45,915 nt of DNA from a virus (IMGVR_UViG_3300012668_000094:1-45915), one strand, 5' to 3'. Counted from the first letter of the stretch, positions 1 to 43,489 are shown. The notes: generated from the letters alone by a model not told the origin. Made by a program: numbers and translations.

Positions 1-77
1 AGACCCCCGATGGTGCCGACCCAGAAGATCTGCCATCTGAGGCCCTTGCGCGTTGTGTGTGAGGATTGCACCCACTC
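1..77. repeat. 77-bp terminal overlap identical to 45839..45915 (circular closure of the contig)
   Basis: Read directly: nt 1-77 and 45839-45915 are identical while the adjoining bases differ. Unique genome = 45,838 bp. Confidence 0.95.
58..70 (+). promoter_or_regulatory. copy of the 13-nt promoter-like motif (TGTGAGGATTGCA), antisense to the lysis-type genes
   Basis: Fits TGn + -10-like hexamer + TGCA consensus. Same bases as 45896..45908. Confidence 0.4.
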
Positions 78-105
78 GCCCCCTGTTCGCCCGTCTACGG
101 GGCTC

Positions 106-324
106 TCAGGACCTCTGAGAGGGCATATTGGCCCTTGCGGTCAGCGCAGCTGGGCCCCCGAGGAAGGCATAGATGGCCGAAGCGACCTGGAGCCACGTCG
201 GGATGCCGGCGCCGGCGCTCAGGAAGCCGACCACGGTGGCGCCCAGAATTACGCCCACTACTCCGAATAGGGAATAGGCAATACCACGGTATTGCTCGGG
301 AATTGCCTGCAATAGTTCTTTCAC
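106..324 (-). CDS. small membrane protein with 2 predicted TM helices (holin candidate)
   Basis: 72 aa. GTG start overlaps the upstream stop (GTGA). Hydrophobic stretches GIAYSLFGVVGVILGATVVGFL and WLQVASAIYAFLGGPAAL. Lies at the end of the late operon. Confidence 0.6.
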   Translation of the reverse strand: MKELLQAIPEQYRGIAYSLFGVVGVILGATVVGFLSAGAGIPTWLQVASAIYAFLGGPAALTARANMPSQRS

Positions 325-614
325 TTTGATTCCTCCGGGGCGACAGGGCTAGGGGTGTTGCTGACGGTGAGATCCCAGAGAGTGTTGATCTTGACGTCCT
401 GGGTGGCCTGTGCTTCCTTGACGAGCTGTAGCTCTACTGAGATATTGGCCAGCTTGTCGAGGACGGTGGGATTATTGGAAGTCCCACCGTTGCGTGTTAC
501 TTGGTGGTGTGTCTCAGTTACCTTGCGACGGTCTATCAGGTTGATAATCGTTCCGACAATGGAAGCGATAGCGGCAACGACTGCTGCTACGACTACTGCT
601 GTTGCAGGATCCAT
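321..614 (-). CDS. N-terminally membrane-anchored protein (lysis-cassette candidate)
   Basis: 97 aa. TAATG overlap with the upstream gene. N-terminal AVVVAAVVAAIASIVGTIINLI, then a polar/coiled tail. Confidence 0.55.
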   Translation of the reverse strand: MDPATAVVVAAVVAAIASIVGTIINLIDRRKVTETHHQVTRNGGTSNNPTVLDKLANISVELQLVKEAQATQDVKINTLWDLTVSNTPSPVAPEESK

Positions 615-2515
615 TACGCACTCACCGTTCGGAGTTGCAGGTAGAGAATTCCACCCTGGTTTCCATCGACCGTCGCATCCCGAGGGGTGCTTTGAATGAA
701 ACGCATTGACTCAATGACAACGGTCTGACCGACATTCAGGGAACTCGTGAAGTCCTGGTAAACCAGAGTCAGGGCATCACTCTCGAGCTGCTGGAGTGCC
801 ATGAGTCGATCCGAGCTGTACCTCGAGCCCCCGTATCGCTGGCCCGAGCGAGCCTGCTCCTCGTCGAAGCACAAGAGGGGCAGGGTGATGAGGCGCTGCG
901 GTGCCACCGCGGGCATCGCCCGGATGAGGTAGGAGTAGACCTTCGGGCCGGTGGTCCCGCCCGAGTGTCTCGTTAGCTCGATACGCAGTGATGCGTAGCG
1001 CATCGGGGCGCTGGCCCAACCCAGGGTGTCAGTGAGGATCTCCCCCTGGAGGGTCATGCTGCCGATGCTCTCGAGGGTGCCGCCCTCGCGGACACCCTGA
1101 ATGACCAGCGAGCCGGCCAGCGGCTCTATGTCCAGGTCGACGAACTTGAAGGCCTTGGGCTCGGTGGTGCGGAACCGGATACGGCTGGTCTGGACATAGC
1201 CGGTCGGCACGAGCTCGGTTGAGCTCTGGTACCACATGCGACCATCGGCGGTGGTGCCGTAGAGCTGGGACCCGATGCTTGCGGCCGAGGTCCAGCTGCT
1301 CACGAATTCGCAGTCAGCGTCCTTGGCGTACGGGAAGGTCCCGTCACCGAAGTCGGTGCTGGTGTCCACCCGGTAGACCAGGGCGTTGCCACCGGTCACA
1401 GCGAACGCGACGACGAAGAAGCGCCCCTGGCTGGTGATCGCCGTGCAGGAGGTCGCACCGGTGGGCTCGATGATGAGGGGCCCGTACTGGATCGAGGAGT
1501 CCTGCTGGACGACGCCGACCCGGAAGCCACGGCTGGTGCCGATGCCGATGTACTGGCCGGCCAGGACTGAGATCTCCTGGACCAGCTCCCCATCGGGGAG
1601 CACTGCGGTCACGGTCGCACCAGAGAGGGCGGGGAGACCCCCGCCCGCGTCGAAGGTGACAGCCTGGATGCTCGAGGAGAAGCCGTCGTGCCCACCGAAG
1701 TACATGGCAGAGGGGCCCTCGGCCATGCAGGTGTAGTTCCACCCGAGGTTGGGGTGGGTGAACTTCGGATCCTGGGACGCGAGGGCAGCCAACGCGAGGT
1801 TGGGCTGCCAGAGCTTGCGACCACCAATGACCCAGAGGCGATGCTTGCCCCATCCGAGCCGGGTCGGGCCGGCGCCGCAGAACCACTTGGTGGCCGTGCC
1901 GGGGGAGGAGATGAGGCCCTGGTATAGCTCACCGTCTGAGGTGACGTCGTAGAACGAGTTACCGGAGATCACTCCATCGACAATGGTGGCTGCCACATCG
2001 TGAAGCAGGACCAGGGCACTGCTCGGGCTGCCATCATTGGTGCTTTTGTAGAGGTTGCCGTTGGCCACCACCGACAGGCCTGCGGCACCGGAGACGGTGT
2101 AGTTCCTCATCCGGGTGTAGGTGCCGACAGGGCCCGTCAAGAGCACCATACGCTTGAGCAGGGAGAGCTCGCCCTGCTCGAACATGTTGACACCGCTGGA
2201 GTCCCAGAAGCCATTATGGGCGTCATCGCTACTGGGTTCGTACAGGAAGCCGGCGCCCTGGTGGAAGGAGCTCTGGCTCCGACGCCACCACCCGGACAGG
2301 CTCTGCTCCCCTGGGTCCTTCTCGGTGTCGAACTGCTCCTTGCGGAGGGGGATTGTCTCAATACTCTGGGGCAGCTCGGCAGAGGTGGCCAGCATGAACG
2401 GAATGCCACCAATGGCCACGTCAACCTCACGCCCCAGGCGGGAGTAGATCGCCTGGGACGCAGAGGACAGTCGCTCAGAGAGCGGTAGTGGGAGTCGGTC
2501 GGGGAAGTCAGCCAT
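614..2515 (-). CDS. large tail/nozzle-associated virion protein (633 aa)
   Basis: Uninterrupted ORF in the tail part of the late operon, overlapping neighbours at both ends. Beta-rich Gly/Ser/Thr composition. No specific motif recognised. Confidence 0.5.
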   Translation of the reverse strand: MADFPDRLPLPLSERLSSASQAIYSRLGREVDVAIGGIPFMLATSAELPQSIETIPLRKEQFDTEKDPGEQSLSGWWRRSQSSFHQGAGFLYEPSSDDAHNGFWDSSGVNMFEQGELSLLKRMVLLTGPVGTYTRMRNYTVSGAAGLSVVANGNLYKSTNDGSPSSALVLLHDVAATIVDGVISGNSFYDVTSDGELYQGLISSPGTATKWFCGAGPTRLGWGKHRLWVIGGRKLWQPNLALAALASQDPKFTHPNLGWNYTCMAEGPSAMYFGGHDGFSSSIQAVTFDAGGGLPALSGATVTAVLPDGELVQEISVLAGQYIGIGTSRGFRVGVVQQDSSIQYGPLIIEPTGATSCTAITSQGRFFVVAFAVTGGNALVYRVDTSTDFGDGTFPYAKDADCEFVSSWTSAASIGSQLYGTTADGRMWYQSSTELVPTGYVQTSRIRFRTTEPKAFKFVDLDIEPLAGSLVIQGVREGGTLESIGSMTLQGEILTDTLGWASAPMRYASLRIELTRHSGGTTGPKVYSYLIRAMPAVAPQRLITLPLLCFDEEQARSGQRYGGSRYSSDRLMALQQLESDALTLVYQDFTSSLNVGQTVVIESMRFIQSTPRDATVDGNQGGILYLQLRTVSA

Positions 2516-6705: not shown

Positions 6706-7059
6706 TCAAGCCGGCTGGGTGAACTGGAAGCCCAGGCCGGCTACGTCGGCATAGGCCTCCAGGCCGAGGTTCTTCAAGGTGCCAGCCGCCGTGATGACAA
6801 CATCGGTACCGGGGTCAACCTTGACCCAAAGGGGGGCTTTCTTCTTGTTGGGCAGGAGCGCCCATGCGGGGACGTTGCCCGTGTTGCGGGTACGGAGGTA
6901 CGACACCGGCCCATTGCAGTCGGGGCGCACCGACACCCCGTCCCAGCCATAACGGCAGTCGATGAGCACCGATCCCGAGAAGTTGGGTAGGGGTGTCTCC
7001 AGGGTGACGCTGTTGTAAGCGTCACCCCGAGAAGCCGGATCACAGGTCCCAATAGGCAT
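6706..7059 (-). CDS. hypothetical virion protein (117 aa)
   Basis: TGATG overlap with the upstream gene. Late operon position. Confidence 0.5.
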   Translation of the reverse strand: MPIGTCDPASRGDAYNSVTLETPLPNFSGSVLIDCRYGWDGVSVRPDCNGPVSYLRTRNTGNVPAWALLPNKKKAPLWVKVDPGTDVVITAAGTLKNLGLEAYADVAGLGFQFTQPA

Positions 7060-7607
7060 CAGAGGCTGCCGGTCTCACCAGACACGGCGATGGTCACACC
7101 GTCGTTGGATAGAGCGGCAGTGTTCGCCGCGGTGCGGCGGACCCAGATGGCACGACAGGAGCCGGCCGCGATGTTGCCCAGGGCGAGGCCGGTGCCGACC
7201 GTGGTCGGGGACGAGAAGGCCGACGTGCCCACCGGAGCGGTCGTCTCGTTTGCAACCTCAGCCGCTTGTGCGGCAGTTGCACCAATGGCAGACGCGGCCA
7301 CGTTGTCCGTGGCGATGGCGATGGACGCCCCGCCCGCGGTCTCGGCGGAGAGGTAGACGACCACGTTCTCGTACACGTTGGCCGCGTTCGAGTTGTGGAT
7401 GAAGATGCAGCGGTAGTCGACGGTACTCGCAGCATTCTCCGCGCCCGACACGTCGTCGAAGAGGTCATTGAGGGCTCCACCGGCCCAGGCCGTGGTGGAG
7501 ATGTACTTGCCGAGGGAGCCAGCTGCGGTGCCCACGGTCGAGTTGCCGGCCGTGCCGGTCTTGACGCTGTACTTGTACAGCACTTCGGCTGAGGTAATGG
7601 CAGCCAT
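7059..7607 (-). CDS. virion structural protein (182 aa)
   Basis: ATG 7607 with AGGAG RBS; the longer track ORF is unsupported. Ala/Thr/Gly-rich, ...DYRCIFIHNSN...AIWVRR... Confidence 0.55.
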   Translation of the reverse strand: MAAITSAEVLYKYSVKTGTAGNSTVGTAAGSLGKYISTTAWAGGALNDLFDDVSGAENAASTVDYRCIFIHNSNAANVYENVVVYLSAETAGGASIAIATDNVAASAIGATAAQAAEVANETTAPVGTSAFSSPTTVGTGLALGNIAAGSCRAIWVRRTAANTAALSNDGVTIAVSGETGSL

Positions 7608-7625: not shown

Positions 7626-7638
7626 TGTTAGGATTGCA
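7626..7638 (+). promoter_or_regulatory. extended -10 promoter-like motif TGTTAGGATTGCA
   Basis: TGnTAGGAT is a good actinobacterial extended -10. It sits 7-8 nt upstream of the tRNA-like element. Confidence 0.55.
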
Positions 7639-7641
7639 GCA

Positions 7642-7805
7642 TCGGTAGTTGGTGTAGTGGCCGCGTGGGCTTCGTGCCTGTAGCGGCGGCGTGCCAGCAC
7701 ATCGCCCGCGGGTCGTCCGGACGCTCGCCGCGGGGACTTACTGCTGGAGGCTGAGCACACGGGCAGCGGCGCCCGAGGGCCGGTTCGATCCCGGACTACC
7801 GACCA
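7642..7805 (+). ncRNA. tRNA-like structured RNA (acceptor + T arm + CCA, with oversized core)
   Basis: TCGGTAGT (7642-49) pairs with ACTACCGA (7795-7802). T arm CCGG/TTCGATC/CCGG (7780-94), CCA at 7803-05, D-loop-like GGTGTAGTGG. About 125 nt lie where about 45 are expected. Confidence 0.5.
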
Positions 7806-7854: not shown

Positions 7855-8808
7855 TCAGAGAACGTCGATGCTGGAGACCGTCTCCACGCGCCAGAGAGCT
7901 TCCTGGCGGTAGATGGACCAGCCGGCGATGCCGTGCCACGACAGCGGACGGAACCGCATCATCGTGTCCGTGACCGGGCCGATGATGAGGTGCGGCTCGA
8001 CAGCCACGACCTCGGCCAGACACTGCGAGCCGAACAGGTAGGACCTGTAGACCTGCTTCGCGGTCGCACCCGTCGCGGACGTCTTGCAGCGAGGGGACTC
8101 GATGTACGAGACACCGCCGAAGACGCCGACCTGCTCCATCCAGAGGTTGTTCGGAGCGACGTTGTTGTGCGGGTAGCGCCAGCCCAGCTCGCCCGTCTCA
8201 CGACGGAGGTCGTACGCCACGTCGGGGTGGATGAAAGCACCGAAAGTGTTTCCGCCCATCTTCTCGATGACGTTCGCGCCGCGCATCTTGGCGACGACAG
8301 CCTGGGGGATCTGGCTCTTGAAGACGTCGCCCGTGGTGAGCGTCACCTCTGTCTTGGTGGTGCTGGCGACGCCCGCGTTGGAGCGGACGACCTGGGTGCC
8401 GGCGTCCAGCACGTTGCGGACACGGAGGTCCACCGACTCTGCCTGACTCCGGGCGACAAGGTTCGCCACCGCGGGGTCGATGTCTGCGAACGTGAACGTC
8501 CGCAGTCGCAGCGTCGGGATGACCGTCTGACCCATTTCGTTCAGGGTCACGGTCACCGTGCTGGTGGAAGGCACCGCTTCCTCGCCGGGGTTCGTGGCCT
8601 CGGCAAGGTTGGTGGTGTTGGGGGTGAGGTCGTTGTACAGGTTGAACACGACCGTCTCACCGGGGTTGGTGAGAGCTGTTGCTCGGGTGTCCGCCACTCG
8701 ACGGAAAAGGGGCTCGGACCGGAGCTTGAAGCCGACGAGCTTCTCGTAACCGGTCTTGACCAGATTGAGGCCGAGTGAGGTACCCGAAGTGATGTCAGTG
8801 GTAGGCAC
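7855..8808 (-). CDS. major capsid protein (HK97-fold type, inferred)
   Basis: 317 aa directly after the acidic scaffold ORF. GTG start with TAAGGAG RBS. Followed by a strong hairpin. Sequence recalls actinophage capsid proteins (from memory only). Confidence 0.75.
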   Translation of the reverse strand: MPTTDITSGTSLGLNLVKTGYEKLVGFKLRSEPLFRRVADTRATALTNPGETVVFNLYNDLTPNTTNLAEATNPGEEAVPSTSTVTVTLNEMGQTVIPTLRLRTFTFADIDPAVANLVARSQAESVDLRVRNVLDAGTQVVRSNAGVASTTKTEVTLTTGDVFKSQIPQAVVAKMRGANVIEKMGGNTFGAFIHPDVAYDLRRETGELGWRYPHNNVAPNNLWMEQVGVFGGVSYIESPRCKTSATGATAKQVYRSYLFGSQCLAEVVAVEPHLIIGPVTDTMMRFRPLSWHGIAGWSIYRQEALWRVETVSSIDVL

Positions 8809-9338: not shown

Positions 9339-9411
9339 GCGGTCCTCCTCGTTGTGGCCTCACACGCCCCGAGGGGGTGGCATGTGGCTCCGAATGTGCC
9401 GACTACCTACG

Positions 9412-9440
9412 CCTGTCACTGAGTCGGCTTGCGTGACAGG
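9412..9440. promoter_or_regulatory. inverted repeat CCTGTCAC-N13-GTGACAGG
   Basis: Perfect 8-bp arms in the 465-bp gap upstream of the scaffold gene. Candidate operator or hairpin. Confidence 0.4.
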
Positions 9441-9447
9441 GAAACTG

Positions 9448-9460
9448 TGGTATGGTTGCA
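9448..9460 (+). promoter_or_regulatory. extended -10 promoter-like motif TGGTATGGTTGCA
   Basis: TGnTATGGT + TGCA, pointing away from the late genes into a terminator-bounded segment. Confidence 0.5.
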
Positions 9461-9462: not shown

Positions 9463-9750
9463 AACGGGAAAGCGACGGCTGACCCGGAGTGTGGCTGAAC
9501 GTCTGGTACTGCTGGATCGACCGGACAAGGCTCATGCGGTGTGCAGGACCCTCTAGGCCGATTCGGTGAAGGGGGGCATGAGGACTAGCAATCCGATTGG
9601 CATACACCTTGCGGTGAACGCATGGACGGCTATAGGAGTACCTCAAACCCGAGAAAACTCCAGCTAGGCCGTGGTGGTAAAGACCAATCCACCCACTCAC
9701 ACAGACCCCCGTTAGCTGGGCCTTGGCCCTCAGCGGGGGTCTTGTGTTAT
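9463..9750 (+). ncRNA. ~285-nt putative non-coding RNA antisense to the late operon
   Basis: Bounded by the motif at 9448 and an intrinsic terminator (GACCCCCG 9704-11 / CGGGGGTC 9734-41 + TTGTGTT). Lower GC and no credible ORF. Confidence 0.5.
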
Positions 9751-9757
9751 GGTTGCT
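9745..9757 (+). promoter_or_regulatory. promoter-like motif TGTTATGGTTGCT
   Basis: Immediately after the terminator. It would drive an RNA antisense to the 21-aa ORF. Confidence 0.35.
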
Positions 9758-9803: not shown

Positions 9804-9869
9804 TCACCGGAAGGCGATGACGGCCAGGAGTACGACGGCGATGATCGCCAGGACTAGAATGGGGTCCAT
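9804..9869 (-). CDS. 21-aa hydrophobic peptide MDPILVLAIIAVVLLAVIAFR
   Basis: ATG 9869 preceded by GAGAGGAG RBS. Followed by an 11-bp hairpin (9767-9795). Not in the ORF track because it is too short. Confidence 0.45.
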   Translation of the reverse strand: MDPILVLAIIAVVLLAVIAFR

Positions 9870-13005: not shown

Positions 13006-14067
13006 TCAGACCCCCGGGACGGTCGCCCCGAGCGCCTGGAAGAGCGCCGGCGCGTAGGTGCCTACGGCCTGCCACTCTGCCCAGTCGGGGTTCTGTCGGG
13101 CCCTGCGGAGGAGGATGTCGTCGATGCCAGCCTGGGTAATCCCGGACTGAGTGGTCGAGGAAGAGAAGTTGTCGACGTCACTGGTGGAGTCGGAGTCGAT
13201 GACCCGACCCTTCTTGTTGGTGGTTTGCGACGACGTGTTCTCGGATGTGCTCTTGTTGGTACTCGTCGTCTTGGTGGGGCTTGTCCGCTGTGCGTACTGG
13301 ATGGCCCCAATGAAGTCCTCGAACTCAGCCTTGGTGGGGTCCCGGCCGAGCTCCCGCTGGAGCATGGCCCGGGTGAGGGCCATGGCGTCATTGGGGTCCA
13401 TGACGTCGCGGCTGATGCTGGTGTTCGAGGTCGTGTTGGTCGAGGAGGAGGTGGACGAGAAGGTCCCAGACAGGTCCTTGTTCTTCTCCTCTTCTTCGAT
13501 CCCGACACCGGTGATGTCGATATCGTTCTCGGTCAGGATCCCCGTGAGGTCCGAGAAGGAGCCGTCCCAGTTGGCCCCTCGGGGGAGCCGGTAGGACACG
13601 TTCTGCTCGAGGAGCTGCTCCGGGGTGATCTTCTGGCCGCGGGCGTAGCGGCCGGCCGCGTCGTTGAGCAGGTCCAAGTAGGCGTTCAGGGTCTCATTGA
13701 GGGTGAGATCCCTGGCAGCCTTGCCGACGTCCTCGAGGGACGCGGACCCGGCGAAGCCACCGAGGGTCAGAAGCAGAGCCAGCCGACTCTGCTCCCGGCG
13801 AGTCATCTGCTCGAACTCCTGGAGCAGAGAGTCGATGGTCTCGGTCTTGGTGATCGGACCTGTGACCAGAACGGACCCCTGGTAGGAGCCACCGGTGCTC
13901 GTGCCCGCGAAGACGGGGGCGAGCAGTGGATCCTCTTGGGTAGTGGCAGTGGCCGGAAGAGCCGATGGCATCGAGCTCTGGATCTGCGCGGCCCAGTCAT
14001 CACCCGGGGAACTGGGTCGCTCGCCGGTTGGCCTGGGCGTTGGTGGGGTGGTGTAGCCCTCGGGCAT
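13006..14067 (-). CDS. internal-virion-type protein (353 aa) with Ser/Thr-rich segments
   Basis: TAATG overlap with the giant gene. No motif recognised. Confidence 0.5.
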   Translation of the reverse strand: MPEGYTTPPTPRPTGERPSSPGDDWAAQIQSSMPSALPATATTQEDPLLAPVFAGTSTGGSYQGSVLVTGPITKTETIDSLLQEFEQMTRREQSRLALLLTLGGFAGSASLEDVGKAARDLTLNETLNAYLDLLNDAAGRYARGQKITPEQLLEQNVSYRLPRGANWDGSFSDLTGILTENDIDITGVGIEEEEKNKDLSGTFSSTSSSTNTTSNTSISRDVMDPNDAMALTRAMLQRELGRDPTKAEFEDFIGAIQYAQRTSPTKTTSTNKSTSENTSSQTTNKKGRVIDSDSTSDVDNFSSSTTQSGITQAGIDDILLRRARQNPDWAEWQAVGTYAPALFQALGATVPGV

Positions 14068-17000
14068 TAGCCGCTCCCTCGCATCAGTGTGTCACCCGTC
14101 AAGTAGCGGGCGTAGAGCTCCGCGAAGGCGGGATTGGATTGAACGATCTGACCGGTCTGGTCGTAGAACCATGAGGCCAGCGGGACGTTAGTGTCGGCCT
14201 GGAGACTCCTGGATCCACCGGCCATGTAGGCGGCGTCCAGCTGCTCGGCAGCCATCGTCCGGACGATGAGATACTGACGGAGGCCGGCGATGTCGGGCCG
14301 GTCGTCGAATTCCTTGTCGAAGGCGAACGTCTCGAGCTGCTGAACCTTGGTGTCGATGTCGTTGGCGAAGACATCAAAGTCAGCGGCCCAGGCCGGGTAC
14401 TGGTCCCGAAGGTCCGAGGTGGCGGCTGCCTTGAGTCGTTGCAGGTCCTTGGCCTCGACCTGCTGGATGCTGGTCAAGCCTCGCTCCATGAGCGCGGCGT
14501 CGACCGCCGCGGCCACCTTGCGGAACTCCTGCCATCCGAGCAGGCGCTCGCCTTCATCCATGCGAGCCTGCGGGTCCTGGATCTCACGCAGCTTGCGCGA
14601 GTCCAGCGGGCCCAGCTGGATATCGAACTGGGCGCGGTAGGCGTCCTGGGAGTAGTCGTCCGTGTAGGCGTCGGGGCTGATGACCAGCCCTCCCCAGTGG
14701 GGGAACTTCTGGATCAGGTCGGCGTTCTCCGACCACTCCTCCATGCCCTGGTTGGTGGGCGGGACGTGGGCCAGGGAGTTGCTCGAGCTGACGGCGTAGT
14801 ACGCCGCATCCTTGCCATAGTCGGTCAGGAACTGGTCGAAGTAGTCCTGGCCGTAGATCTCGCGGTAGCGGTGTGCCTGATCGAGCCAGAACTGGTGCTT
14901 GGGTGCGAACTCCGTCTGGACCGGGCTGGCCCAGCTGGAGAAGGCCCGCAGGCCCCAGAGGAAGTTGGCTGCCTTGTTGATCTCGTGCTGGGTTGGCATC
15001 GGCTTGCCCTCGCGGCGAGCCTCGAGGAGCATCTCCCGGCCCACCGACCATGCGAGGTTCGCACGGCCGAGGTCGTCAGCACCACCGGTGGCGTCCAGGA
15101 CGCGCCGGCCCCAGCCAGGGAACAGCTGCTCGAGGACACCCTCGGCGCCCGTCGAAGGGCGACCGATGGGGAAGAGCCAGCGATACCAGAGGTCATCGCT
15201 GCTGCCGGTGCCATCTGTGGGCGACACGATCTTGAGGAACTTGTCGATGGGCATGGTGAGCAGTGGGCCCGTCGACGGGAACAGTGGCATCTCGCCCTGG
15301 AGGACGGTGTTGGCCGACCCGATGGGGATGCGTACCGATCCGACGCTGTACAGAGACTTGCCCAGTGGCGTATCCCTCACCCACTCGGGGATGTTGAAGA
15401 CCACCTTGTCGGTCGGCTGGTAGAGGCCGAGGTTGAATGTGCCGCCCTTGCGGGTGCCGTCCTCAACCTCGTTGTTCTCCTCGTCGACCACGACGAAGTT
15501 GCGGTAGGTCGCACGCTGGCCCACAAACCACCGGGCCACCGTCTCGGGGCGGTCGCTGACGATCCGGGCCCACTTCACCATCGCCTCCTGCTGGGCGTTC
15601 CAGAAGGGGGCGATGAAGCGCAGCATGTCCGTCAGGTTGGTACCGTCCGACAGGTCGTACAGGGTCTTGCGGACCTCGTTCAGCGCGTGCCGGCGTGCCT
15701 CGGAGTAGATCCGACCTACGGCCTGCTCGTCGAGGAACTTGCGGTCGGTCTGTGCCACGAGGGCGCGCACCTTGGCGTCGAAGACAGCCTTGGCGAACGG
15801 CTGGCGGGAGAGGGCGTCGATGGGGATGGTGCCCAGGCCGGACCACATCTTGTCCGCGAGCCGCGTCCAGGGGGCGCTCTTGGTCATCTCGAGGTCGGGC
15901 CCGAAGACGTCCGGCATGTCGTCGTTGTGAATATCACGGCGCAGCTGGGCCGGCGTGAGCCGGTTCTTGCCCAGGAGTCGCTGGAGGCGCTTGTTGGGCA
16001 GGTAGTAGTCCAGCTTCGCCCGGTGCTCGTTCACCCAGAGCTCGGTGCTCCGGTGCTCGGGCATGATCTCAGCCCGGACCCGGTTGCCCTGCGGGGTGTT
16101 GTCGAGCCAGTCGACGATCTGGTCATCCCGCTGGCCGGCCAGCATCCTCTTCCAGATGGGGCTGTTGCCGACCTGATCGTTGAGCATGTCGGCCCAGATG
16201 TCGAAGTACCGCACGGCCGTCTGGTTCTCGCGGGTGCCGCGGACGACCGTCTTCTCATTGAACTTCGGGGGATGGTAAGTCTTGTGTCCGGCTGCCTGCT
16301 GGCGCAGGTACTGGAGAGCTCCACCGTGGCCGTCGCTGATGTTGTCGATGGTCTTGCTCGAGGAGACCAGGGCGCGGTTGATGTCGCCCTCCTGCCCCTC
16401 GAAGAAGTTCGGGATGTGGAACTGCTTGCCGTCAGCATCCTCGATGGTGGTGTGGCCGGCGCCGTACTTCTTCTTCATGCGCTCGTACAGCCCGCGGGCG
16501 GGGTCGTCGAGGGTGGAGTCCATGTCCTCGAGGTTCATCTGCCGGTCGCCGTCGAGGTAGGCCATCTCCTGGGCGCGGAGGTCGCCGTTGGCGGCAGCCG
16601 CCCAGTCGAAGTCAGCGTTCAGGCCATCGGCCTCGTTGACCATCTGGTTGAACCGCTGGGGGTGTGCCACCTCGTACCAGTCCTGGCCGAAGGCGTTGGG
16701 GGTGCCCGGGTCGACGTGGCTGTAGTCCATGGCCCTGACGGCGAAGTCGTCGAGATTCTGGTCGAGCGCCCGAGCCTTGCCCACGGTGAAGCCGTGGTAC
16801 TCCAGGCCCATCGCAGACATGAGCGTCTGCTCCTGGGTGCGGAGCTCGATCACCCTGGGGTCAGTGAGTCTGGCCTTGCCGCTCAGCTGGGCCTTGCGCG
16901 CCTCCAGCTCGGCGTGGATGGTGTGCAGCTGGCGCAGCATGGGGTTGCGCTTGCCGAACCGCACGATGCGGGACTCGGGGACGCTGTTGGTGGTGAGGGG

Positions 17001-27002: not shown

Positions 27003-27998
27003 TCATTGGATCGAGTCGAATTGGATTGTTCCATCCATGGGATAGGGGAGTTCGTTATACAGGATGTCCCGGGCCTCACTGACCGCATGGTCGGAATTAT
27101 CCGACTCCGGCACATCCACGTCCACGTCCACGGTGAAGCGAACCGTGACAGTCGTTGTGTGCGCTTCATCCCATTCCTCGCGCCCCATGAGACCAATCTC
27201 ATCCATGCAGTTCTCGAATTCCCCGCACAGTCCATTCTGCTTGGCGTAGCGGACGGCCGTCGCGTTAGCCTCCTCCTTCCACGCTTCGACGCGAGCACGG
27301 TCACGCGCTAGCGCGGTCTCTACGGCTCTGTCAATGTCCGCTTGAGTGAAGGATGCCGCCACGGTCTCCACGGCGCTCTCAGGTGCCTCTGTGGACTCCT
27401 GAGAGGTCTCGTCGGCCCACCGCACGAACGTGGTGGACGACAGGTCCAGAGCGCCGCGCACCCAGTCGCGCTCGCGCCCGGCGTCGTCGTGCGACCTCAC
27501 CACGACATAGCGCGGCCCGGACACTGCCGTGTGACTAACCACAGTGGCGTCACCTGCGCTGATGTGATTCCACACCGACCCAAGGGGATAGGCCTCTGTG
27601 ATGGGGAGTGCCTCGCGCGCCGTAGCGTCGTGCTCAATGCGTGGCCGGACCGGAGTAGCGACGGGCGAGACCGGAGTCATGTAGTGCTGTTCGATATTCC
27701 AGCCACGGAAAGTGGCGGACGTATCCAGCGTGTCAGTGAGGTCGTATCCCGCAGGATCCAGTAGCCACATGCCACCCGAGCGCGGATCGGTCTCAGGGAG
27801 GACAACGAGTCCCCAACCCGGACCCATGTCGCGGGAGGGGACCGCGTAGAACGTCCTCTCGTCGTTGGTCGCGTGAGGGTTGGTCCTCATACCGGAGGAT
27901 TCCAGACCGGACGCGAAGAACTCCGGCGAGAGGGTGACGAGAGTGAGTGTTCCATTCTCGAGGGTGAGTGTTTCGGTTGTGCTAGTAGACATGATCAC
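27003..27998 (-). CDS. acidic protein of unknown function (331 aa), cassette gene 2
   Basis: Clean ORF with weaker GC3 bias than the rest of the genome. C-terminal ...TVRFTVDVDVDVPESDNSDH... No motif recognised. Confidence 0.6.
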   Translation of the reverse strand: MIMSTSTTETLTLENGTLTLVTLSPEFFASGLESSGMRTNPHATNDERTFYAVPSRDMGPGWGLVVLPETDPRSGGMWLLDPAGYDLTDTLDTSATFRGWNIEQHYMTPVSPVATPVRPRIEHDATAREALPITEAYPLGSVWNHISAGDATVVSHTAVSGPRYVVVRSHDDAGRERDWVRGALDLSSTTFVRWADETSQESTEAPESAVETVAASFTQADIDRAVETALARDRARVEAWKEEANATAVRYAKQNGLCGEFENCMDEIGLMGREEWDEAHTTTVTVRFTVDVDVDVPESDNSDHAVSEARDILYNELPYPMDGTIQFDSIQ

Positions 27999-28036: not shown

Positions 28037-28049
28037 TGTCAGTGTTGCG
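28037..28049 (+). promoter_or_regulatory. degenerate motif copy TGTCAGTGTTGCG (antisense to cassette gene 1)
   Basis: 2 mismatches to the consensus. Lies in the 100-nt spacer between the cassette genes. Confidence 0.25.
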
Positions 28050-28097: not shown

Positions 28098-28478
28098 TCA
28101 GATATCCTCCAGTATGGTCGGCAGGTCGTCCCATGCGACATCTGAGAGGTCCCCGGGGATGTCCACAACAGCGCCGTAGCACTGGTCCAGTGCCACCATG
28201 TGACCGAGCGCGGCCGCAATCTGGAGGATGTGGAACACGTTGTGAACGAACGTCTCCCCCGCCTCCAGTGAGACTGCACCGCGCGCGACCAGTAGGCCTA
28301 CCTCCGCCATAGCAGGCTCCAGTAGCGCGGCAAGCGCTCCCATCATCTCATCGTCGTCGACGATGGCAGGGAAAGCGACGGCAAGAGTTTCGCACGGTGA
28401 GATGCCGAGGAATTCCCCGAGATCGGCCGACGTGGTGAGTGCTTGCGACCATTCCATGATCGTGTCATGTGTGCTCAT
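28098..28478 (-). CDS. very acidic small protein (126 aa), cassette gene 1
   Basis: ATG 28478 with GGAAGGA RBS. Asp/Glu-rich with almost no Lys/Arg. Confidence 0.6.
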   Translation of the reverse strand: MSTHDTIMEWSQALTTSADLGEFLGISPCETLAVAFPAIVDDDEMMGALAALLEPAMAEVGLLVARGAVSLEAGETFVHNVFHILQIAAALGHMVALDQCYGAVVDIPGDLSDVAWDDLPTILEDI

Positions 28479-28540
28479 TGTTTCGATCCTTCCCAATCCG
28501 GTCCGGCACGGTGCCGGCCCGATACAGACTCAACGCCCTA

Positions 28541-28553
28541 TGCAAGCCTGACA
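28541..28553 (-). promoter_or_regulatory. promoter-like motif TGTCAGGCTTGCA driving the acidic cassette
   Basis: Minus-strand copy ~60 nt upstream of ATG 28478. Confidence 0.55.
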
Positions 28554-28685
28554 CAACCCCATGGCACATCTTCGTTACCAAACCGTGACCCATGTCTAGA
28601 CCAGCCTCGAGATCGGCGTCGAGCGGCGCGCCGCGGGGCGACGGCCCTCGCGCGCGCGCGGGGGGTGGGGGAGGAGGCGCAACGG

Positions 28686-28715
28686 GTCCGCACTGGACCG
28701 CACTGGTCCGCACTG
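28686..28715. repeat. three tandem 10-bp repeats G(T/A)CCGCACTG
   Basis: GTCCGCACTG GACCGCACTG GTCCGCACTG, helically phased, in the divergent control region. Confidence 0.8.
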
Positions 28716-28784
28716 CACATGGTGGAGCCCATGGTCAACCACCGTTACCAAGTCGTGACCTTTGACCGGGAATGGTCTACCATG

Positions 28785-28797
28785 TGTCATGGTTGCA
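28785..28797 (+). promoter_or_regulatory. promoter-like motif TGTCATGGTTGCA driving the early plus-strand operon
   Basis: About 110 nt upstream of ATG 28906. Confidence 0.55.
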
Positions 28798-28905
28798 GCC
28801 TGTATCCCCGGTGGATCTGGCGACAGAGCCACCACCCCCAAGTACCGGGTTCACCGGGGACATCAACCACTACATTTCGGCCGATTTCGGCCAGAGAGAG
28901 GCACC

Positions 28906-29175
28906 ATGACCAACTTCAACCGAACCGTTACGAGCATCGCGCTCGCCTGTCCGCACTGCGGCAGCGACCGCCTCCGTTCCGACGAGGTGGCCACTATCGG
29001 CTATCCCGTCGCCATGTTCCGCGACGAGAGCGGCAACGTCGACGTCGAATACACCGGCGAGGAATACGACACCTTCGATGAGGGCACCGTCTATTCCGGC
29101 GACATCTGGTGCCGCGACTGCGGCGACCAGCTCACCGAGTCCGACCTTGTTTCGGCACAGGAGGTGGACGCATGA
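28906..29175 (+). CDS. zinc-ribbon protein (89 aa)
   Basis: ATG with GAGAGAGG RBS. CPHC...CRDC. Confidence 0.6.
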   Translation: MTNFNRTVTSIALACPHCGSDRLRSDEVATIGYPVAMFRDESGNVDVEYTGEEYDTFDEGTVYSGDIWCRDCGDQLTESDLVSAQEVDA

Positions 29176-30565: not shown

Positions 30566-30591
30566 TAGTTTGCAACAATGCAACCATTACA
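30566..30591. promoter_or_regulatory. internal promoter-like element (TAGTTTGCA on plus; TGTAATGGTTGCA on minus)
   Basis: Imperfect inverted pair GTTTGCA-ACAA-TGCAACC in the 60-nt gap before ATG 30612. Confidence 0.35.
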
Positions 30592-33457: not shown

Positions 33458-34065
33458 CACTTCCCCCATCGCAGGGGGATGTCGACACCCGGGTGGTCAC
33501 TGTCGATGTCGACCGTGGACGGTGAGAGCAGCCGAATCCTTGGCGGCGCGAGTACACCAAGCACCCCGTTGCCGCGGTAGTGCCGCTGCATGTTCTGTTC
33601 CATCCAGTCCACCGAGAGGTTCCAGTCGCCGGCCATCACGCCGCGACAGCTCTTGGCCCGGGCGACATAGGCAGCCCTGGCTGCCGTGGACCTGAGTGGT
33701 GGCGCATGGACCGCCCAGATCGGGACAGGCAGGCCCTTCGCATCCGCACCCACGATGGGGCGCATCCGGACGGCGGTCTTGCCGCTCCCGGAGGGGTTGG
33801 ATCCCACCAGGATCCCTACCGGCTCGAGCTCGAACCTGGAGGCGATAGCCACGCCGGCCTCCGGGGAGCCCTGCTCTCCATACTGGACTGAGTGGAAGCC
33901 GAAGTCCCGAGCCAGTGGTTCCAGGTTGAGCCAGCTGGCCTCCGAGAAGACCACGATGTCAGGGAGGCCACGCTTCCCCGGCAGAGTCAGGGCCAGTCGA
34001 GCCTCCTTCGCGGGGTTGCGCTCAGAGACGCCCTCGAGGTTCGCTACCCGCAATAGGGCCTTCAC
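33457..34065 (-). CDS. endonuclease/exonuclease/phosphatase (EEP)-fold protein
   Basis: 202 aa. ...DIVVFSEAS..., ...IWAVHAPP..., ...GDWNL..., ...DSDHPGV... in EEP motif order. GTGA overlap. Confidence 0.55.
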   Translation of the reverse strand: MKALLRVANLEGVSERNPAKEARLALTLPGKRGLPDIVVFSEASWLNLEPLARDFGFHSVQYGEQGSPEAGVAIASRFELEPVGILVGSNPSGSGKTAVRMRPIVGADAKGLPVPIWAVHAPPLRSTAARAAYVARAKSCRGVMAGDWNLSVDWMEQNMQRHYRGNGVLGVLAPPRIRLLSPSTVDIDSDHPGVDIPLRWGK

Positions 34066-34691
34066 TCGGTACCTCCTGGATTGGGCCCACCGAGGGCAGC
34101 CCTCAGTCGGCCGAGGATGCGCCGCAGACGGGAGTCCGCGGCCTTGGTGGTGCAGCCCCAGTCGAGCGCCAGGACGGCGATCTCCTGGTCGGGGTCCTTG
34201 ACCCCGTACACCTGTGTCAGAAGCGCTCTATCGTGCTCGTGGAGCGTCTGGAAGGCCCTCCTGACGTCGGCCACCATCGCCATCAGGTTGCCGCCCTCGT
34301 TGGAGGGCGTGCCCGAGCTGATCCGGTCCAGCTGGACGGATCCCGGGAGCATCCAGTCTGGGTCGAAGGACAGCACGAGCAGGTCTCGCACCATGGGGAT
34401 CGAGTAGAAGAACTCGTCCTCGGGGAGGTAGCCGTCGTGCTCTGACTTCTCGGCTCGGCAGTACCGCTCGCCGGCGTTCCGCAAGGCCTTGGTGATGGTC
34501 CGCTCGGCGTGGCGGTCGCCGTGCTCCTCACGCCACTTCATGGCCTTGTGGTAGTTGGCGAACAGCCACAGGTAGCACTCCTGCTGCACGTCCTCATAGG
34601 AGACGTGCTGGCGGTACCGGGCGGTCAGGATGCGGGAGGCGGAAGAGACAGCGGCGTGATCGGCCGGGGTGAAGTCGAACGTGGTGGTCAT
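34062..34691 (-). CDS. sigma-70-family (ECF-like, regions 2+4) factor
   Basis: 209 aa. EDVQQECYLWLF...ALRNAGERYCR (region 2-like) and DRALLTQVYG...TTKAADSRLRRILGRLR (region 4 HTH-like). Confidence 0.5.
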   Translation of the reverse strand: MTTTFDFTPADHAAVSSASRILTARYRQHVSYEDVQQECYLWLFANYHKAMKWREEHGDRHAERTITKALRNAGERYCRAEKSEHDGYLPEDEFFYSIPMVRDLLVLSFDPDWMLPGSVQLDRISSGTPSNEGGNLMAMVADVRRAFQTLHEHDRALLTQVYGVKDPDQEIAVLALDWGCTTKAADSRLRRILGRLRAALGGPNPGGTE

Positions 34692-36085: not shown

Positions 36086-36724
36086 CTACCCCTTGCTGAC
36101 GTACGCGAGGTATTCGTCGACGCCGTGCTCGAGCACGTAGGAGTTGACGTCATAGCCCTCGGGCATCGGTCGCCGGATCGAGTTGGGGAGGTTGCGCGCC
36201 AGGGTTGCAACGAACTCTCGGCCGGCTTTGTCTCCGTCGCCAACGATGATGACTCTTTCATAGTCATCGAAGAGGCGGTAGTAGAACGGCTTCCAATTGG
36301 TGGCACCGGGCACACCCACCGCGGGCATTCCTGCCTGCGTGGAGATCAGTGCATCCAGCTCACCCTCGGTCACGGCCACGGTGTCGGTGGGCTGGTGCAG
36401 AGCACCGACGTTGTAGAGGTGGGTGCTATCCCCCGAAACACCCTGGTACTTGCCGTGCTCGAGGTCGCCGCAGTTGTGATCCTCGAGGCAACGGAACCTC
36501 ATGTAGACCACTCCTGTTGGGGTGATGAATGGGATGGACAGTCGGCCGGCGTACTGGTGGTGAACCGGGTCAGGGTCGACCACGAGACCAAGGAGAAACC
36601 CAGTTGCGGCGTCCTGGTCGATGCCCCGAGCGGCGAGGTAGGAGACCGTCTTCTCGTCCAGAGCTTCGTGATAGGCCCTTGCCAGACCCTCCAGATAGCT
36701 CTTCTGCGACTCGCTTGGCCTCAC
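36086..36724 (-). CDS. DNA primase, RNA-polymerase/TOPRIM part
   Basis: 212 aa. YLAARGID...LGLV and AVTEGELDALIS...VIIVGDGDKAGREF (TOPRIM). GTG start lies inside the zinc-finger ORF. Confidence 0.8.
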   Translation of the reverse strand: MRPSESQKSYLEGLARAYHEALDEKTVSYLAARGIDQDAATGFLLGLVVDPDPVHHQYAGRLSIPFITPTGVVYMRFRCLEDHNCGDLEHGKYQGVSGDSTHLYNVGALHQPTDTVAVTEGELDALISTQAGMPAVGVPGATNWKPFYYRLFDDYERVIIVGDGDKAGREFVATLARNLPNSIRRPMPEGYDVNSYVLEHGVDEYLAYVSKG

Positions 36725-40391: not shown

Positions 40392-40423
40392 GGAGCGGCT
40401 ACGCACCGCCCTCGAGAGGCGCT

Positions 40424-40726: not shown

Positions 40727-40729
40727 GGC

Positions 40730-41119
40730 TCAGCCCCACACCGGTTCGCACTTGTCCGTGGCGTTCTTGGGCTGCGGGCACATCCAGCCTTCCCAAGTGC
40801 CACGGGAGTTGACGCCGGTCTTGTAGGCCCGCTTGCCGTGGTTGCAGAAGCGGTCCTGGCCGATCACCTGGGCTCCCTGCTGGGGAGCGGGGGCGGCGGC
40901 GACGGCAGGGGCCGCGGCCGGCGCCGGGATGGCTGCGCCGTTGGCCCCATGGAACAGACCCTTGGTCTCCACGATGGTCTCGAGCAGGCTCTCCTGGACC
41001 GCCAGGAGGTTCTCCTCCAGCTCGGCCACGTTGTCACCACGGACGACCAGGAGCGCAGCTCCGTAGCCCTCATCACTCTTGAACGACACCGTGTAGGTGT
41101 CGGTTGCGTTCTCGCTCAC
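40730..41119 (-). CDS. hypothetical protein with Ala/Pro linker and C-terminal Cys cluster (129 aa)
   Basis: GTGA overlap. ...FCNHGKRAYKTGVNSRGTWEGWMCPQPKNATDKC... Confidence 0.5.
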   Translation of the reverse strand: MSENATDTYTVSFKSDEGYGAALLVVRGDNVAELEENLLAVQESLLETIVETKGLFHGANGAAIPAPAAAPAVAAAPAPQQGAQVIGQDRFCNHGKRAYKTGVNSRGTWEGWMCPQPKNATDKCEPVWG

Positions 41120-41358: not shown

Positions 41359-42233
41359 TGCTTGTCTCCTTCGTTGTGTGTCAGGGTTGCATCTGGTTTA
41401 CGAAAAAATGGGGTCCCGCCCATCGCAACGCAAAAACGCGCCACGCCGCAGGCGCTCTTGCAGAGGTTCCCGGGGACGGCCAGGAAGAGCTGCTGGTCTC
41501 TGATCTCACGGGCCTTCCAGGCCTGCTCCCACAGCCACTCCTCGGTGAAGACACTGAGGTCGAACCACTCAGGCACTCCCCCGCTACGGGCCTTCCAGAA
41601 GCCAGCCCACCGGGGCTGCACCTCGAAGGTGCCGAGCACTCCCAGGGCGTTGTACGCCATCTGGCGGGGCCATGCGTCGGTGTGGCTGCCGGTCTTGAGG
41701 TCGACGATGTAGAGCTCGCCGGCGTCGTTGACGTACACCCGGTCGATAATGGAGCGGATCTGGAGGTCCTCCGGGCCATAGGCCCAGACCTCAACCTCGA
41801 CGGCCGGCTTGAGCTCGCCGTCCTCGTCGGGGTACTCCCAGATCTTGAGGCCGCAGTTGTCTCGCCACATGATCCACTGCTTGATGAACTCGGGGCCCTT
41901 GAGGGACCACCACTCAGGGGTCTCCTTCTCGGGCCAGTCCTTGCTGGCGCGACCGGAGCGGTAATACTCGGACGGCTCGTACTGGGGACTGCGCTCCACG
42001 GCCTCGTCGTAGCACTCCTGCCAGACGATGGACCAGAGCTCGTTGATCCCTCGCTCGTCACCCAGGTCGATCATCTCGGTGACCCTGTGGACGGTGCTGC
42101 CACCGATCCCGGCCCACATGGGCCGTTCGGGAGCACCTTCGACACGAGTCAGGCGGTACTGCTCACCACAGGTAGTGAGGCTCGAGATCTGCGACGGGCT
42201 GAGGTAGGTCGGCGGGATCCAGTCGGGGTTCAC
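41355..42233 (-). CDS. Cas4/RecB-like PD-(D/E)xK exonuclease with Cys cluster
   Basis: ...SPSQISSLTTCGEQY..., ...IVDLKTGS..., ...QMAYNALG..., C-terminal CKSACGVARFC. Start moved to GTG 42233 (GTGA overlap). Confidence 0.65.
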   Translation of the reverse strand: MNPDWIPPTYLSPSQISSLTTCGEQYRLTRVEGAPERPMWAGIGGSTVHRVTEMIDLGDERGINELWSIVWQECYDEAVERSPQYEPSEYYRSGRASKDWPEKETPEWWSLKGPEFIKQWIMWRDNCGLKIWEYPDEDGELKPAVEVEVWAYGPEDLQIRSIIDRVYVNDAGELYIVDLKTGSHTDAWPRQMAYNALGVLGTFEVQPRWAGFWKARSGGVPEWFDLSVFTEEWLWEQAWKAREIRDQQLFLAVPGNLCKSACGVARFCVAMGGTPFFRKPDATLTHNEGDKQ

Positions 42234-42558: not shown

Positions 42559-42571
42559 TGCAACCATGTCA
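42559..42571 (-). promoter_or_regulatory. promoter-like motif TGACATGGTTGCA driving the replication operon
   Basis: Minus-strand copy directly after terminator 42574-94. Confidence 0.55.
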
Positions 42572-42573
42572 CA

Positions 42574-42844: not shown

Positions 42845-42846
42845 CA

Positions 42847-42859
42847 TGCAACCCTGACG
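42847..42859 (-). promoter_or_regulatory. promoter-like motif CGTCAGGGTTGCA
   Basis: Minus-strand copy 11 nt after the regulator stop codon. Confidence 0.45.
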
Positions 42860-42869
42860 CAAGCCCTCT

Positions 42870-43313
42870 TCACGAAATTCTTTTCTCGGGGTCCCGGACG
42901 ACCGGGACATCCGGGATGTCCGGCTCGCCCTTGATGTAGAAGAAGCCCTTCTCGGTGTCGGGGTAGTAGACCACCACGGCCCCGGCCTGCTGGAGCTGGG
43001 CCAACCAGGAGTCCAGCCGCTGGTCGGACTCGGCGCTGTTGGCGATGTCCTTGCGCCGGCGCCCCAGGAGTCGGAGCATCCGGGCCGCGTAGTGCGTCTG
43101 GTGCTCCTCCTTGATCGTCCAGGGGAGCTCGTCGACGTACTTCTTGGCGACCGATGCTTCGCCGGCGCGGAAGAGCGCGGCGGACACCGTACTTCGGCTG
43201 ACGGGGTACCCGGTGCGGCGCGTCACCTCGTCAGCGATCTGCTGATGGGTCAAGCCTCGGTCGACCATCTGACGCAAGTCAGAGGTGGGGGGCAGGATGC
43301 GTGCTGGGGACAT
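42870..43313 (-). CDS. HTH DNA-binding regulator (repressor/switch candidate)
   Basis: 147 aa from ATG 43313. LTHQQIADEVTRRTGYPVSRSTVSAAL is HTH-like. Divergent from the integrase operon. Confidence 0.55.
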   Translation of the reverse strand: MSPARILPPTSDLRQMVDRGLTHQQIADEVTRRTGYPVSRSTVSAALFRAGEASVAKKYVDELPWTIKEEHQTHYAARMLRLLGRRRKDIANSAESDQRLDSWLAQLQQAGAVVVYYPDTEKGFFYIKGEPDIPDVPVVRDPEKRIS

Positions 43314-43452
43314 GCAACACAGTGTGGCGCAACTGTGGCACTTAGTCAAATCCACAACCAACCCGAGGGGTGGTTGCACCCGCCCTACTCGCCCCTCCGT
43401 CGCAGGTCAGGATCAGGGGTTTCGTAGGACACGACGCTGCTGGGTGCTGTTG

Positions 43453-43489
43453 TGTCAGGATTGCACCGTGCTACAGTGGCATGGTTGCA
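43453..43489 (+). promoter_or_regulatory. two tandem promoter-like motifs (TGTCAGGATTGCA, TGGCATGGTTGCA) 24 bp apart
   Basis: Copies at 43453-65 and 43477-89, upstream of the plus-strand nuclease-integrase operon. Confidence 0.5.

Follow-up and report, generated by a model that had tools for sequence, protein, structure and literature searches.

A recurrent asymmetric motif in an uncultured actinophage-like genome as a probable set of operators and stoperators for an L5/R4-type immunity repressor

Dispersed repressor sites that silence a prophage were first described in mycobacteriophage L5. The repressors of this family are monomers with two DNA-binding domains and recognize sites of 13-14 bp without dyad symmetry; the 20-30 sites of a genome are oriented with transcription, a few being operators and most being stoperators that block elongation, and reversal of a site abolishes repression (PMC6550527, PMC9283540). 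Binding as a monomer, together with an orientation-dependent block of elongation, is known for L5 and TipsytheTRex only (PMC9283540, PMC6550527). Published stoperator motifs include TGTGCAAGTGTNGC for R4, TGTGCAAGTGTNGCA for ELB20, GTGTGCAACCTTCGTA for Zemlya, AGTGTGTTAGNCNGAC for phiHau3 and GGTGGCTGTCAAG for L5 (PMC10276819 Table S3). Here we describe a short motif that recurs along a viral DNA stretch of 45,915 nucleotides (IMGVR_UViG_3300012668_000094:1-45915, the whole of which we call the window), and the gene of a predicted immunity repressor (rep) that adjoins the densest cluster of its copies. We estimate a probability of about three in four that the motif represents the binding sites, both operators and stoperators, of this L5/R4-type repressor, as judged from its family and from the arrangement of the sites. 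Some copies apparently also serve as promoter -10 elements.

An earlier inspection of the window (the sequence-only reading) had listed 13 copies of a 13-nt motif, and a weaker coding copy at 36197, from a scan by eye that it described as not exhaustive. We searched the window for TGTCAKGGTTGCA with up to two mismatches and obtained 17 matches against 1.8 expected, a number that was attained in none of 100 dinucleotide shuffles, the control which that reading had proposed. The match at 45896 duplicates the one at 58: positions 1-77 are identical to 45839-45915, and this exact 77-bp terminal redundancy implies that the contig is a circular assembly in which 45896 and site 58 are the same. A 19-nt weight matrix built from the good copies separated 14 sites, scoring 20.5 bits or more (12.3-26.2 bits in leave-one-out scoring), from the next best match at 11.9 bits. 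The coding copy at 36197 and a further one at 40834 fell in the group at or below 11.9 bits and look like chance. All 13 listed copies were correct in coordinate and strand, and a good copy at 44198 on the minus strand had been overlooked. The 14 unique copies, of the form TG-TGTCAKGGTTGCA (about two expected by chance), were spread over the genome from 58 to 44198. Positions G2, A5, T9, T10, G11 and C12 of the 13-mer were invariant, and the conserved core reached 2 nt further 5', giving a 15-nt block with the consensus TGTGTCAKGGTTGCA that has no dyad symmetry and is not palindromic. De novo motif discovery by 7-mer enrichment was swamped by coding bias and uninformative, and an exact 15-mer scan of IMG/VR returned 66 contigs with one match each, a result compatible with chance.

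The window represents the genome of a temperate phage, 45.8 kb in length with ∼64% GC, and comprises a long leftward structural block (terminase, portal and N4-gp56-type capsid), a leftward early block (Cas4-family exonuclease, DnaB-like helicase, primase and polymerase exonuclease subunit) and two rightward blocks, one of which terminates in a tyrosine integrase. With the initial gene calls, 13 of the 14 sites were intergenic in a genome of which 12% is intergenic (binomial P = 1.6e-11). After correction of one gene start, 12 sites are intergenic and two (58 and 41379) lie at gene edges, in agreement with the earlier statement that the motif occurs mostly in non-coding gaps. We designated a site as S if TGCAACCnTGACA appears on the transcribed strand. 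This orientation was found for all eight copies located within operons (58, 7626, 9448, 9745, 28037, 30579, 41379 and 44198). Four of these directly precede the next ribosome-binding site, with their ends 18-25 nt before the start codon. Of the eight, all antisense to their transcription unit when read in the forward direction, five have their ends 18-44 nt before a start codon and face the other way. The four inverted copies were all observed in gaps that presumably contain promoters, 42559 and 42847 between the repressor gene and the early operon, and 28541 and 28785 in the divergent gap 28496-28906. Together with the tandem pair at 43453 and 43477 they make up the six copies that had been said to point into the operons they precede, which we confirmed, as we did the antisense orientation of the late-region copies with respect to the genes. 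Coordinates are collected in Table 1.

Table 1. Motif copies and associated features in the window; S, orientation in which TGCAACCnTGACA appears on the transcribed strand.
Feature	Position	Strand	Sequence	Context
Site 58	58..70	+	TGTGAGGATTGCA	S with respect to leftward late transcription; transcribed strand TGCAATCCTCACA; just downstream of gene 106..324(-)
Site 7626	7626..7638	+	TGTTAGGATTGCA	S; ends 18 nt upstream of ATG 7607 of gene 7059..7607(-), directly 5' of its AGGAG
tRNA-like RNA gene	7642..7804	+		Antisense to late operon; ∼163 nt
Capsid gene	7855-8808	-		N4-gp56 type
Candidate -35 of site 9448	9429..9434	+	TTGCGT	16 nt upstream of TATGGT of site 9448
Site 9448	9448..9460	+	TGGTATGGTTGCA	S with respect to late operon; 109 nt upstream of scaffold-like gene start 9338
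manA-like structured RNA (RF01745)	9468..9703	+		Full-length match, 37.5 bits (below the Rfam gathering score of 55.2), E = 1.6e-7
Site 9745	9745..9757	+	TGTTATGGTTGCT	S; directly 3' of the terminator hairpin of the RNA gene; degenerate in L082
Site 28037	28037..28049	+	TGTCAGTGTTGCG	S; between genes 28098..28496(-) and 27003..27992(-), 44 nt upstream of ATG
Site 28541	28541..28553	-	TGTCAGGCTTGCA	Inverted (forward), head of leftward structural operon; 44-62 nt upstream of start of gene 28098..28478/28496(-)
Site 28785	28785..28797	+	TGTCATGGTTGCA	Forward, head of rightward block; first likely start ATG 28906
Site 30579	30579..30591	-	TGTAATGGTTGCA	S, within rightward block; ends 20 nt upstream of ATG 30612; preceded by terminator-like hairpin
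Site 41379	41379..41391	+	TGTCAGGGTTGCA	S; in last ∼12 codons of PD-(D/E)XK exonuclease gene, 20 nt upstream of next gene's GTG 41358
Site 42559	42559..42571	-	TGACATGGTTGCA	Inverted; candidate early-operon operator; first early open reading frame starts 42466
Site 42847	42847..42859	-	CGTCAGGGTTGCA	Inverted; 11 nt downstream of rep stop codon, ahead of GC-rich hairpins
Immunity repressor (predicted)	42870..43313	-		147 amino acids; N-terminal helix-turn-helix and second domain with conserved PW..H....LR
Site 43453	43453..43465	+	TGTCAGGATTGCA	First of tandem pair, gap between rep and integrase operon; forward with respect to rightward operon (GTG 43519), S with respect to rep
Site 43477	43477..43489	+	TGGCATGGTTGCA	Second of tandem pair, 24 nt from first
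Site 44198	44198..44210	-	TGTCAAGGTTGCT	S, inside integrase operon, 25 nt upstream of GTG 44236

The product of rep matched phrog_3929, a transcriptional repressor family (E = 1.6e-20), and shares 34-36% identity with proteins annotated as immunity repressors in R4-group Streptomyces phages; the alignment with R4 gp29 covered 132 amino acids at 33% identity (E = 8e-19). R4 gp29 itself matched L5 gp71 with E = 1e-11 and is annotated as similar to it. When a profile of 24 family sequences was aligned to L5 gp71 using hhalign, the probability was 94.8% (E = 5.4e-8, 125 columns), and the same profile matched PDB entries 7r6r and 7tz1, a cluster A2 immunity repressor on DNA (E = 0.005). The sole convincing Foldseek match to the AF2 model of the repressor (pLDDT 80) was 7r6r_A, with a probability of 1.00 over 138 columns. 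Columns PW..H....LR, RL..W and GF.Y were conserved across all three repressor groups, and the recognition helix RSTVSAAL was nearly invariant across the repressor family. By these sequence and fold comparisons, the repressor is a member of the L5 gp71/R4 gp29 family, which is characterized by an N-terminal helix-turn-helix and a second DNA-binding 'Stoperator' domain. The suggestion of the sequence-only reading, which had named the helix-turn-helix regulator at 42870..43313 for binding assays, that the motif may be a repressor operator overlapping the -10 gains from this membership and from the resemblance of the motif to the stoperator motifs of the R4 group. As a separate observation, rep has no ribosome-binding site and is preceded by TTGACT-17-CACACT-7-ATG (43313-43349, minus strand), which together suggest a leaderless transcript. 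The public gene call of the repressor starts at a later ATG and gives 132 amino acids; all relatives begin with MPARILPP.

Comparison with the published motifs showed common blocks, namely TGTG...GCA with R4 and ELB20, TGCAACC with Zemlya, and TGTCA(A/K)G with L5. In a control search, the R4 genome contained 17 copies of the R4 motif against 0.15 expected, at gene junctions that include both sides of the capsid gene. These copies were sense-oriented in both arms, with one upstream of rep in the direction of rep, and a single inverted copy was found between rep and the first early gene. The arrangement in the window corresponds to this one. In the right arm of L5, used as a second control, 16 of 16 copies had one orientation. 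The L5 block TGTCAAG lies on the non-transcribed strand, as does TGTCAKG in the S copies of the window. The order of rep, a small open reading frame, the Cas4-family exonuclease and the DnaB-like helicase is that of L5 genes 71-70-69...65, and the exonuclease is 26% identical to L5 gp69 (E = 4e-13). Synteny with R4 and the TGTCA(A/K)G block shared with L5 suggest that the S copies have the canonical polarity of stoperators.

Metagenomes contained more than 250 related repressors. We examined 12 related loci, seven around repressors that are 61-70% identical and five around capsid genes, and observed the same motif, positions and orientations as in the window; here too, most sites lay in intergenic gaps or at gene junctions. 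Within operons, 21 of 22 matches were S, and all nine matches between rep and the early genes were inverted, with one or two copies per locus. The correlation of site orientation with the direction of transcription, seen for all eight in-operon copies of the window, was present in the relatives and in the L5 and R4 controls as well. Sites occurred in the gap toward the early operon and in the gap upstream of rep, where promoters are presumed, in the window and in 7/7 related rep loci. All seven likewise retain, at the position of site 41379, an S copy where the exonuclease gene ends, and the tandem pair upstream of rep recurred in L068, L072 and L073. In the loci around capsid genes, S copies flank the scaffold and capsid genes, and L080 and L081 have syntenic S sites after the capsid gene. 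In one relative, L074, the sites (9722, 9896, 10602 and 11852) read TGTCAACGTTGCA or TGCGAACGTTGCA, and its repressor (P0105) carries several substitutions in the PWTVRRPHHSHYAIRMLRV segment, the putative DNA-contacting part of the second domain. L074 may be a natural specificity variant; because it is a single case, the co-variation of repressor and motif is only suggestive. A scan of IMG/VR with the repressor found no relatives, and a metagenome scan with the capsid returned two 1.3-kb contigs only.

We then considered the promoter-like features of the motif. It had been described as TGn followed by a -10-like hexamer, and this holds for the TG, correctly placed in 13 of the 14 copies, and for A2 and T6 of the hexamer, present in all 14; T1 occurs in three copies only (7626, 9448 and 9745). 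The frequent C at hexamer position 1 that had been noted was found in nine copies. A -35-like hexamer at 16-17 nt accompanies only two of the 14; CATGGT of site 42559 is located 17 nt from TTGCGC (42591-42586). Eight copies face a downstream transcription unit, six at operon heads and two at RNA genes, and the other six are antisense into coding sequence.

The two RNA genes, both on the plus strand, are tRNA-like and manA-like, and are preceded by sites 7626 and 9448, respectively, as had been claimed. The tRNA-like gene begins 8 nt after TAGGAT of site 7626, which places TGT-TAGGAT at its -10 position. Its 7-bp acceptor stem is perfect, its T-arm is GGTTCGATCC and CCA is encoded; ARAGORN called the gene as tRNA-Ser(gct) only if a 68-nt intron was allowed. 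It had no match in Rfam or among GenBank phages and was absent from the relatives examined, where the gap after the capsid gene is 60-130 nt. BLAST of both RNA genes against GenBank phages gave a 62-nt match for one (Rhodococcus phage tRNA-Lys, E = 6e-4) and none for the other. The manA-like RNA begins 12 nt after TATGGT of site 9448, which in the forward direction forms its -10 region, and is followed directly by a hairpin (9705-9744) with a T-rich TTGTGTT tail. It is kept, with the same motif, in L082 (7382-7618, minus strand; 37.4 bits), whose capsid is 92% identical; the equivalent place in L082 reads TTGCAC-17-TATGGT, and sequence conservation between the window and L082 begins exactly at the motif. 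The manA-like RNA stands alone, with its own candidate -35/-10 and terminator, and in this actinophage-like genome it is encoded within the late operon on the antisense strand. Described manA RNAs come from marine metagenomes, cyanophages and gamma-proteobacteria, and are putative 5'-untranslated region (5'-UTR) elements (PMC2864571).

Since 7626 and 9448 lie at the -10 of RNA genes and six further copies stand at operon heads, the motif is apparently a repressor site with a -10-like element inside it. On the basis of this arrangement, copies directed into a transcription unit probably act as repressible promoters, and the rest as roadblocks. In a lysogen, repressor monomers would occupy all 14 sites. 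The six copies at the heads of units would read TGTGTCAKGGTTGCA along transcription, 42559 and 42847 toward the early operon, 43453 and 43477 toward the integrase (and also upstream of rep), 28541 toward the structural operon and 28785 toward the rightward block; they would overlap the extended -10-like TGn-YAKGRT and, as operators, would prevent initiation. Within units, the eight copies at gene junctions, which have the opposite polarity, would be stoperators that halt RNA polymerase which has escaped or read through, a role of the antisense copies that the earlier note had not considered. In the forward direction, 7626 and 9448 would in addition be repressor-controlled -10 elements for the two small RNA genes antisense in the late operon. 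A stricter form of this proposal, in which one 15-bp sequence is both the site of the repressor monomer and the -10 core of every early and RNA-gene promoter, we consider tentative and rather doubtful. If it were true, polarity alone would decide between a repressible promoter and a roadblock to elongation, resident stoperators would have acquired small RNA genes downstream of them and brought these under repressor control, and manA RNAs could be independent trans-acting transcripts and not 5'-UTR riboswitches.

Several observations weigh against assigning the motif to the repressor and to a -10 function. All six operon-head hexamers begin with C and not T, and would for this reason make weak -10 elements for sigma-A. 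No promoter was found at the sites when both control regions were scanned with an E. coli-type promoter consensus. Similarity to the R4 motif was best (11-12/15) in the polarity opposite to that suggested by synteny, and the window has four to six inverted sites as compared to none seen in the right arm of L5 and one in R4. Direct BLASTP of the repressor against L5 gp71 gave no match, which leaves profiles, the fold and the intermediate R4 as the connection to L5, and the Foldseek match to 7r6r_A was modest in TM-score (0.37-0.42) with a root-mean-square deviation of 9.6 Å. The relatives have fewer late-region sites, with none above threshold in L079, and the gene starts behind the classification of sites are our own calls. 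What the sequences show directly is the set of motif copies with their location and polarity, their retention in relatives, and the family to which the repressor belongs; binding of the repressor to the motif, the roadblock function and the promoter function are all steps that we infer from homology and placement.

The sequence-only reading had offered a phage promoter set or an operator as explanations. An operator that overlaps the -10 fits best, and a pure promoter fails for most copies. If the motif were promoter core only, an extended -10 for host sigma-A without a repressor, the TGn with a hexamer of invariant A2 and T6 and the position of six copies at operon heads would follow; so would the location of 7626 and 9448 at the -10 of RNA genes (for the manA-like RNA, two phages have a -35-like hexamer, spaced by 16-17 nt), the 17-nt spacing of TTGCGC at 42559, and the TTGTCC-16-TAGGGT carried by L067 and L069. 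However, hexamers start with C in 9/14 and with T in only three, most copies have no -35, the invariant TTGCA on the 3' side and the TG on the 5' side of the hexamer are unexplained by a -10, and the consensus scan detected no promoter at the operon heads. Moreover, 8/14 copies are antisense to their own transcription unit and would have to be antisense promoters, five of which would direct transcription away from the neighbouring start codon and into the upstream gene's 3' end, with no obvious use. The strict split in polarity and the biology of the family are better explained by repressor binding, which makes an exclusive promoter role improbable. Recognition by the phage sigma-like protein at 34062-34691 on the minus strand, also proposed earlier, found nothing in its support in our analysis and appears very unlikely. 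The protein matched phrog_354, 'sigma-K factor' (E = 1.6e-13), and a non-housekeeping specificity could be reflected in the C at hexamer position 1 and the invariant TGCA, but its identity as a sigma factor is weak because there is no Pfam or PDB sequence match. Further, the protein is itself encoded in the early operon, which has the motif at its head and must be transcribed first, 8/14 copies are antisense to genes, and no separate -35/-10 pair occurs at fixed spacing. The likeness of TGGCATGGTTGCA to the GG and GC elements of sigma-54 promoters (TGGCAC-N5-TTGCA) is superficial: the GG-to-GC offset is 9 nt compared to the consensus of 12 nt, and GG is found in only 2/14 copies, most having TGT. 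Reading the reverse complement as a -35 (CTGACA) or as an ECF-type -35 (TGCAAC) gave no -10 at consistent spacing, and both readings were rejected, as was that of a sigma-54 promoter.

Two explanations that do not invoke transcription initiation were also weighed. Start-associated sequences (SAS) of cluster K phages lie directly upstream of start codons in the sense of the gene and include the ribosome-binding site. A comparable element in the 5'-UTR, acting on translation or processing of the downstream gene, would account for the transcribed-strand copies located directly before a ribosome-binding site, at 18-25 nt from the start; other copies, however, lie 44-109 nt from any start or have the opposite orientation at promoter gaps, 41379 is within a coding end and 58 over the first codons of an open reading frame. 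With the ribosome-binding site outside the motif, starts 18-109 nt away and six copies in the opposite orientation at promoter gaps, we rejected the equation with SAS, and the presence of a DNA-binding repressor of the right family beside the densest site cluster leaves very little probability for any 5'-UTR role. That the motif marks points of insertion or recombination of small mobile cassettes is suggested by the RNA genes, which are lineage-specific insertions exactly beside resident sites, and by the 297-nt segment 9461-9757, bounded by the copies 9448 and 9745. Most copies, though, have no cassette nearby, the second flanking copy is degenerate in L082, no recombinase is linked to the sites, and RNA genes that use the site as a promoter would explain the pattern equally well; we find a cassette origin hardly credible.

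No close relative of the window was found among GenBank phages, and neither the repressor profile nor the capsid detected, in scans of GTDB genomes, a prophage that would identify a host. Lsr2 genes in the relatives, together with a GC content of 58-68%, point to Actinobacteria. The N4-gp56-type capsid, and an SU10-like adaptor in the relatives, make a podovirus-like virion probable, in which the giant protein encoded at 14067-21290 on the minus strand may be an internal or ejection protein. This tape-measure-like open reading frame of 2407 amino acids has no Pfam or PDB sequence match and corresponds only to a PHROG of unknown function, and was on these grounds rejected as an N4-like virion RNA polymerase that reads the motif. 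At the left end, site 58 covers the first codons of the last late open reading frame, which runs from GTG 71 across the origin to 45667 and encodes 80 amino acids with two hydrophobic stretches; ATG 36 was discarded as the gene start downstream of this site, as it opens a frame of 15 codons only.

The divergent gap 28496-28906 holds other repeats besides the motif. A direct repeat, CGTTACCAA-N3-GTGAC, occurs at 28573-28589 and 28743-28759, 170 bp apart; inverted TCTAGACCA/TGGTCTACCA adjoin both motif copies, and three tandem (G)GWCCGCACTG units lie at 28685-28716. These repeats may be the binding site of a second regulator. Across the window, CCTCGAG/CTCGAGG occurs 72 times as compared to ∼24 expected under a second-order Markov model; it is enriched in several relatives too, and may reflect a codon effect. 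In the late region, the gap upstream of the scaffold-like gene of L080 (9147-9329), L081 and L079 seems to hold an uncalled small Cys-rich, zinc-ribbon-like open reading frame; in the window, a hydrophobic frame of 21 amino acids (9804-9869, minus strand) is found there instead. A conserved structured leader, in the sense of the scaffold and capsid genes, precedes them at 9339-9447 (minus strand) in the window and in L079, L080 and L081, and in the alignment of the four sequences 10 of 20 predicted pairs showed compensatory changes, for example CCTGTCAC/GTGACAGG as compared to CCACCGT/GCGGTGG.

Assignment of the motif to the repressor would extend the L5/R4 repressor-stoperator strategy to abundant uncultured temperate actinophage-like genomes of ∼46 kb with N4-type capsids. 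This mode of silencing was thought to be typical of a few siphovirus clusters, and its occurrence with N4-type capsids makes it look like a mobile module that is independent of virion type. The relatives form a graded series of repressors and motifs, including one in which substitutions in the second domain accompany a changed motif centre, and could show how new specificity evolves in a monomeric two-domain repressor. The motif would also be a useful annotation marker for the immunity region and for the boundaries of transcription units in these genomes.

Among known systems, the operators of lambda-type phages are similar in that repressor sites lie on core promoter hexamers in a divergent control region beside the repressor gene; they differ in being dyad-symmetric, bound by dimers and confined to the immunity region, without elongation-blocking copies. 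Cluster A mycobacteriophages (L5 gp71, Bxb1 gp69, TipsytheTRex; PDB 7R6R/7TZ1) encode a repressor of the same two-domain family by profile and fold, and share with the window dispersed asymmetric sites oriented with transcription, the TGTCA(A/K)G block on the non-transcribed strand and the order of genes from rep to the helicase. The repressors, however, have no pairwise similarity and differ in length (147 amino acids here, 183 in cluster A), the site here is of 15 bp with an extra GTTGCA half, and there are 14 sites as opposed to 20-30. In addition, the operators at L5 Pleft have the same polarity as the stoperators and overlap the -35, whereas the promoter-gap sites here are inverted and overlap the -10-like element.

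The closest counterpart is the R4 group (R4, ELB20, phiHau3 and Zemlya; Arequatrovirus, SEA-PHAGES cluster BD), with a homologous repressor (33-36% identity) and a 15-bp asymmetric motif of related sequence in 14-17 junction copies of strong polarity, including one class of sites upstream of rep in the direction of rep and another, inverted, in the gap from rep to the first early gene. The motif sequence itself differs, and the window carries an unrelated virion module (N4-gp56-type capsid, with the SU10-like adaptor in relatives) in a 46-kb genome, a tyrosine and not a serine integrase, and four inverted sites plus a tandem pair where R4 has one inverted site. Unlike the motif of the R4 group, that of the window embeds a -10-like element and fronts RNA genes, and its phage comes without a cultured host. 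Taken together, the sites are best explained as an instance of the known repressor-stoperator strategy, the novelty being its occurrence in a previously undescribed uncultured lineage and its overlap with a -10-like element.

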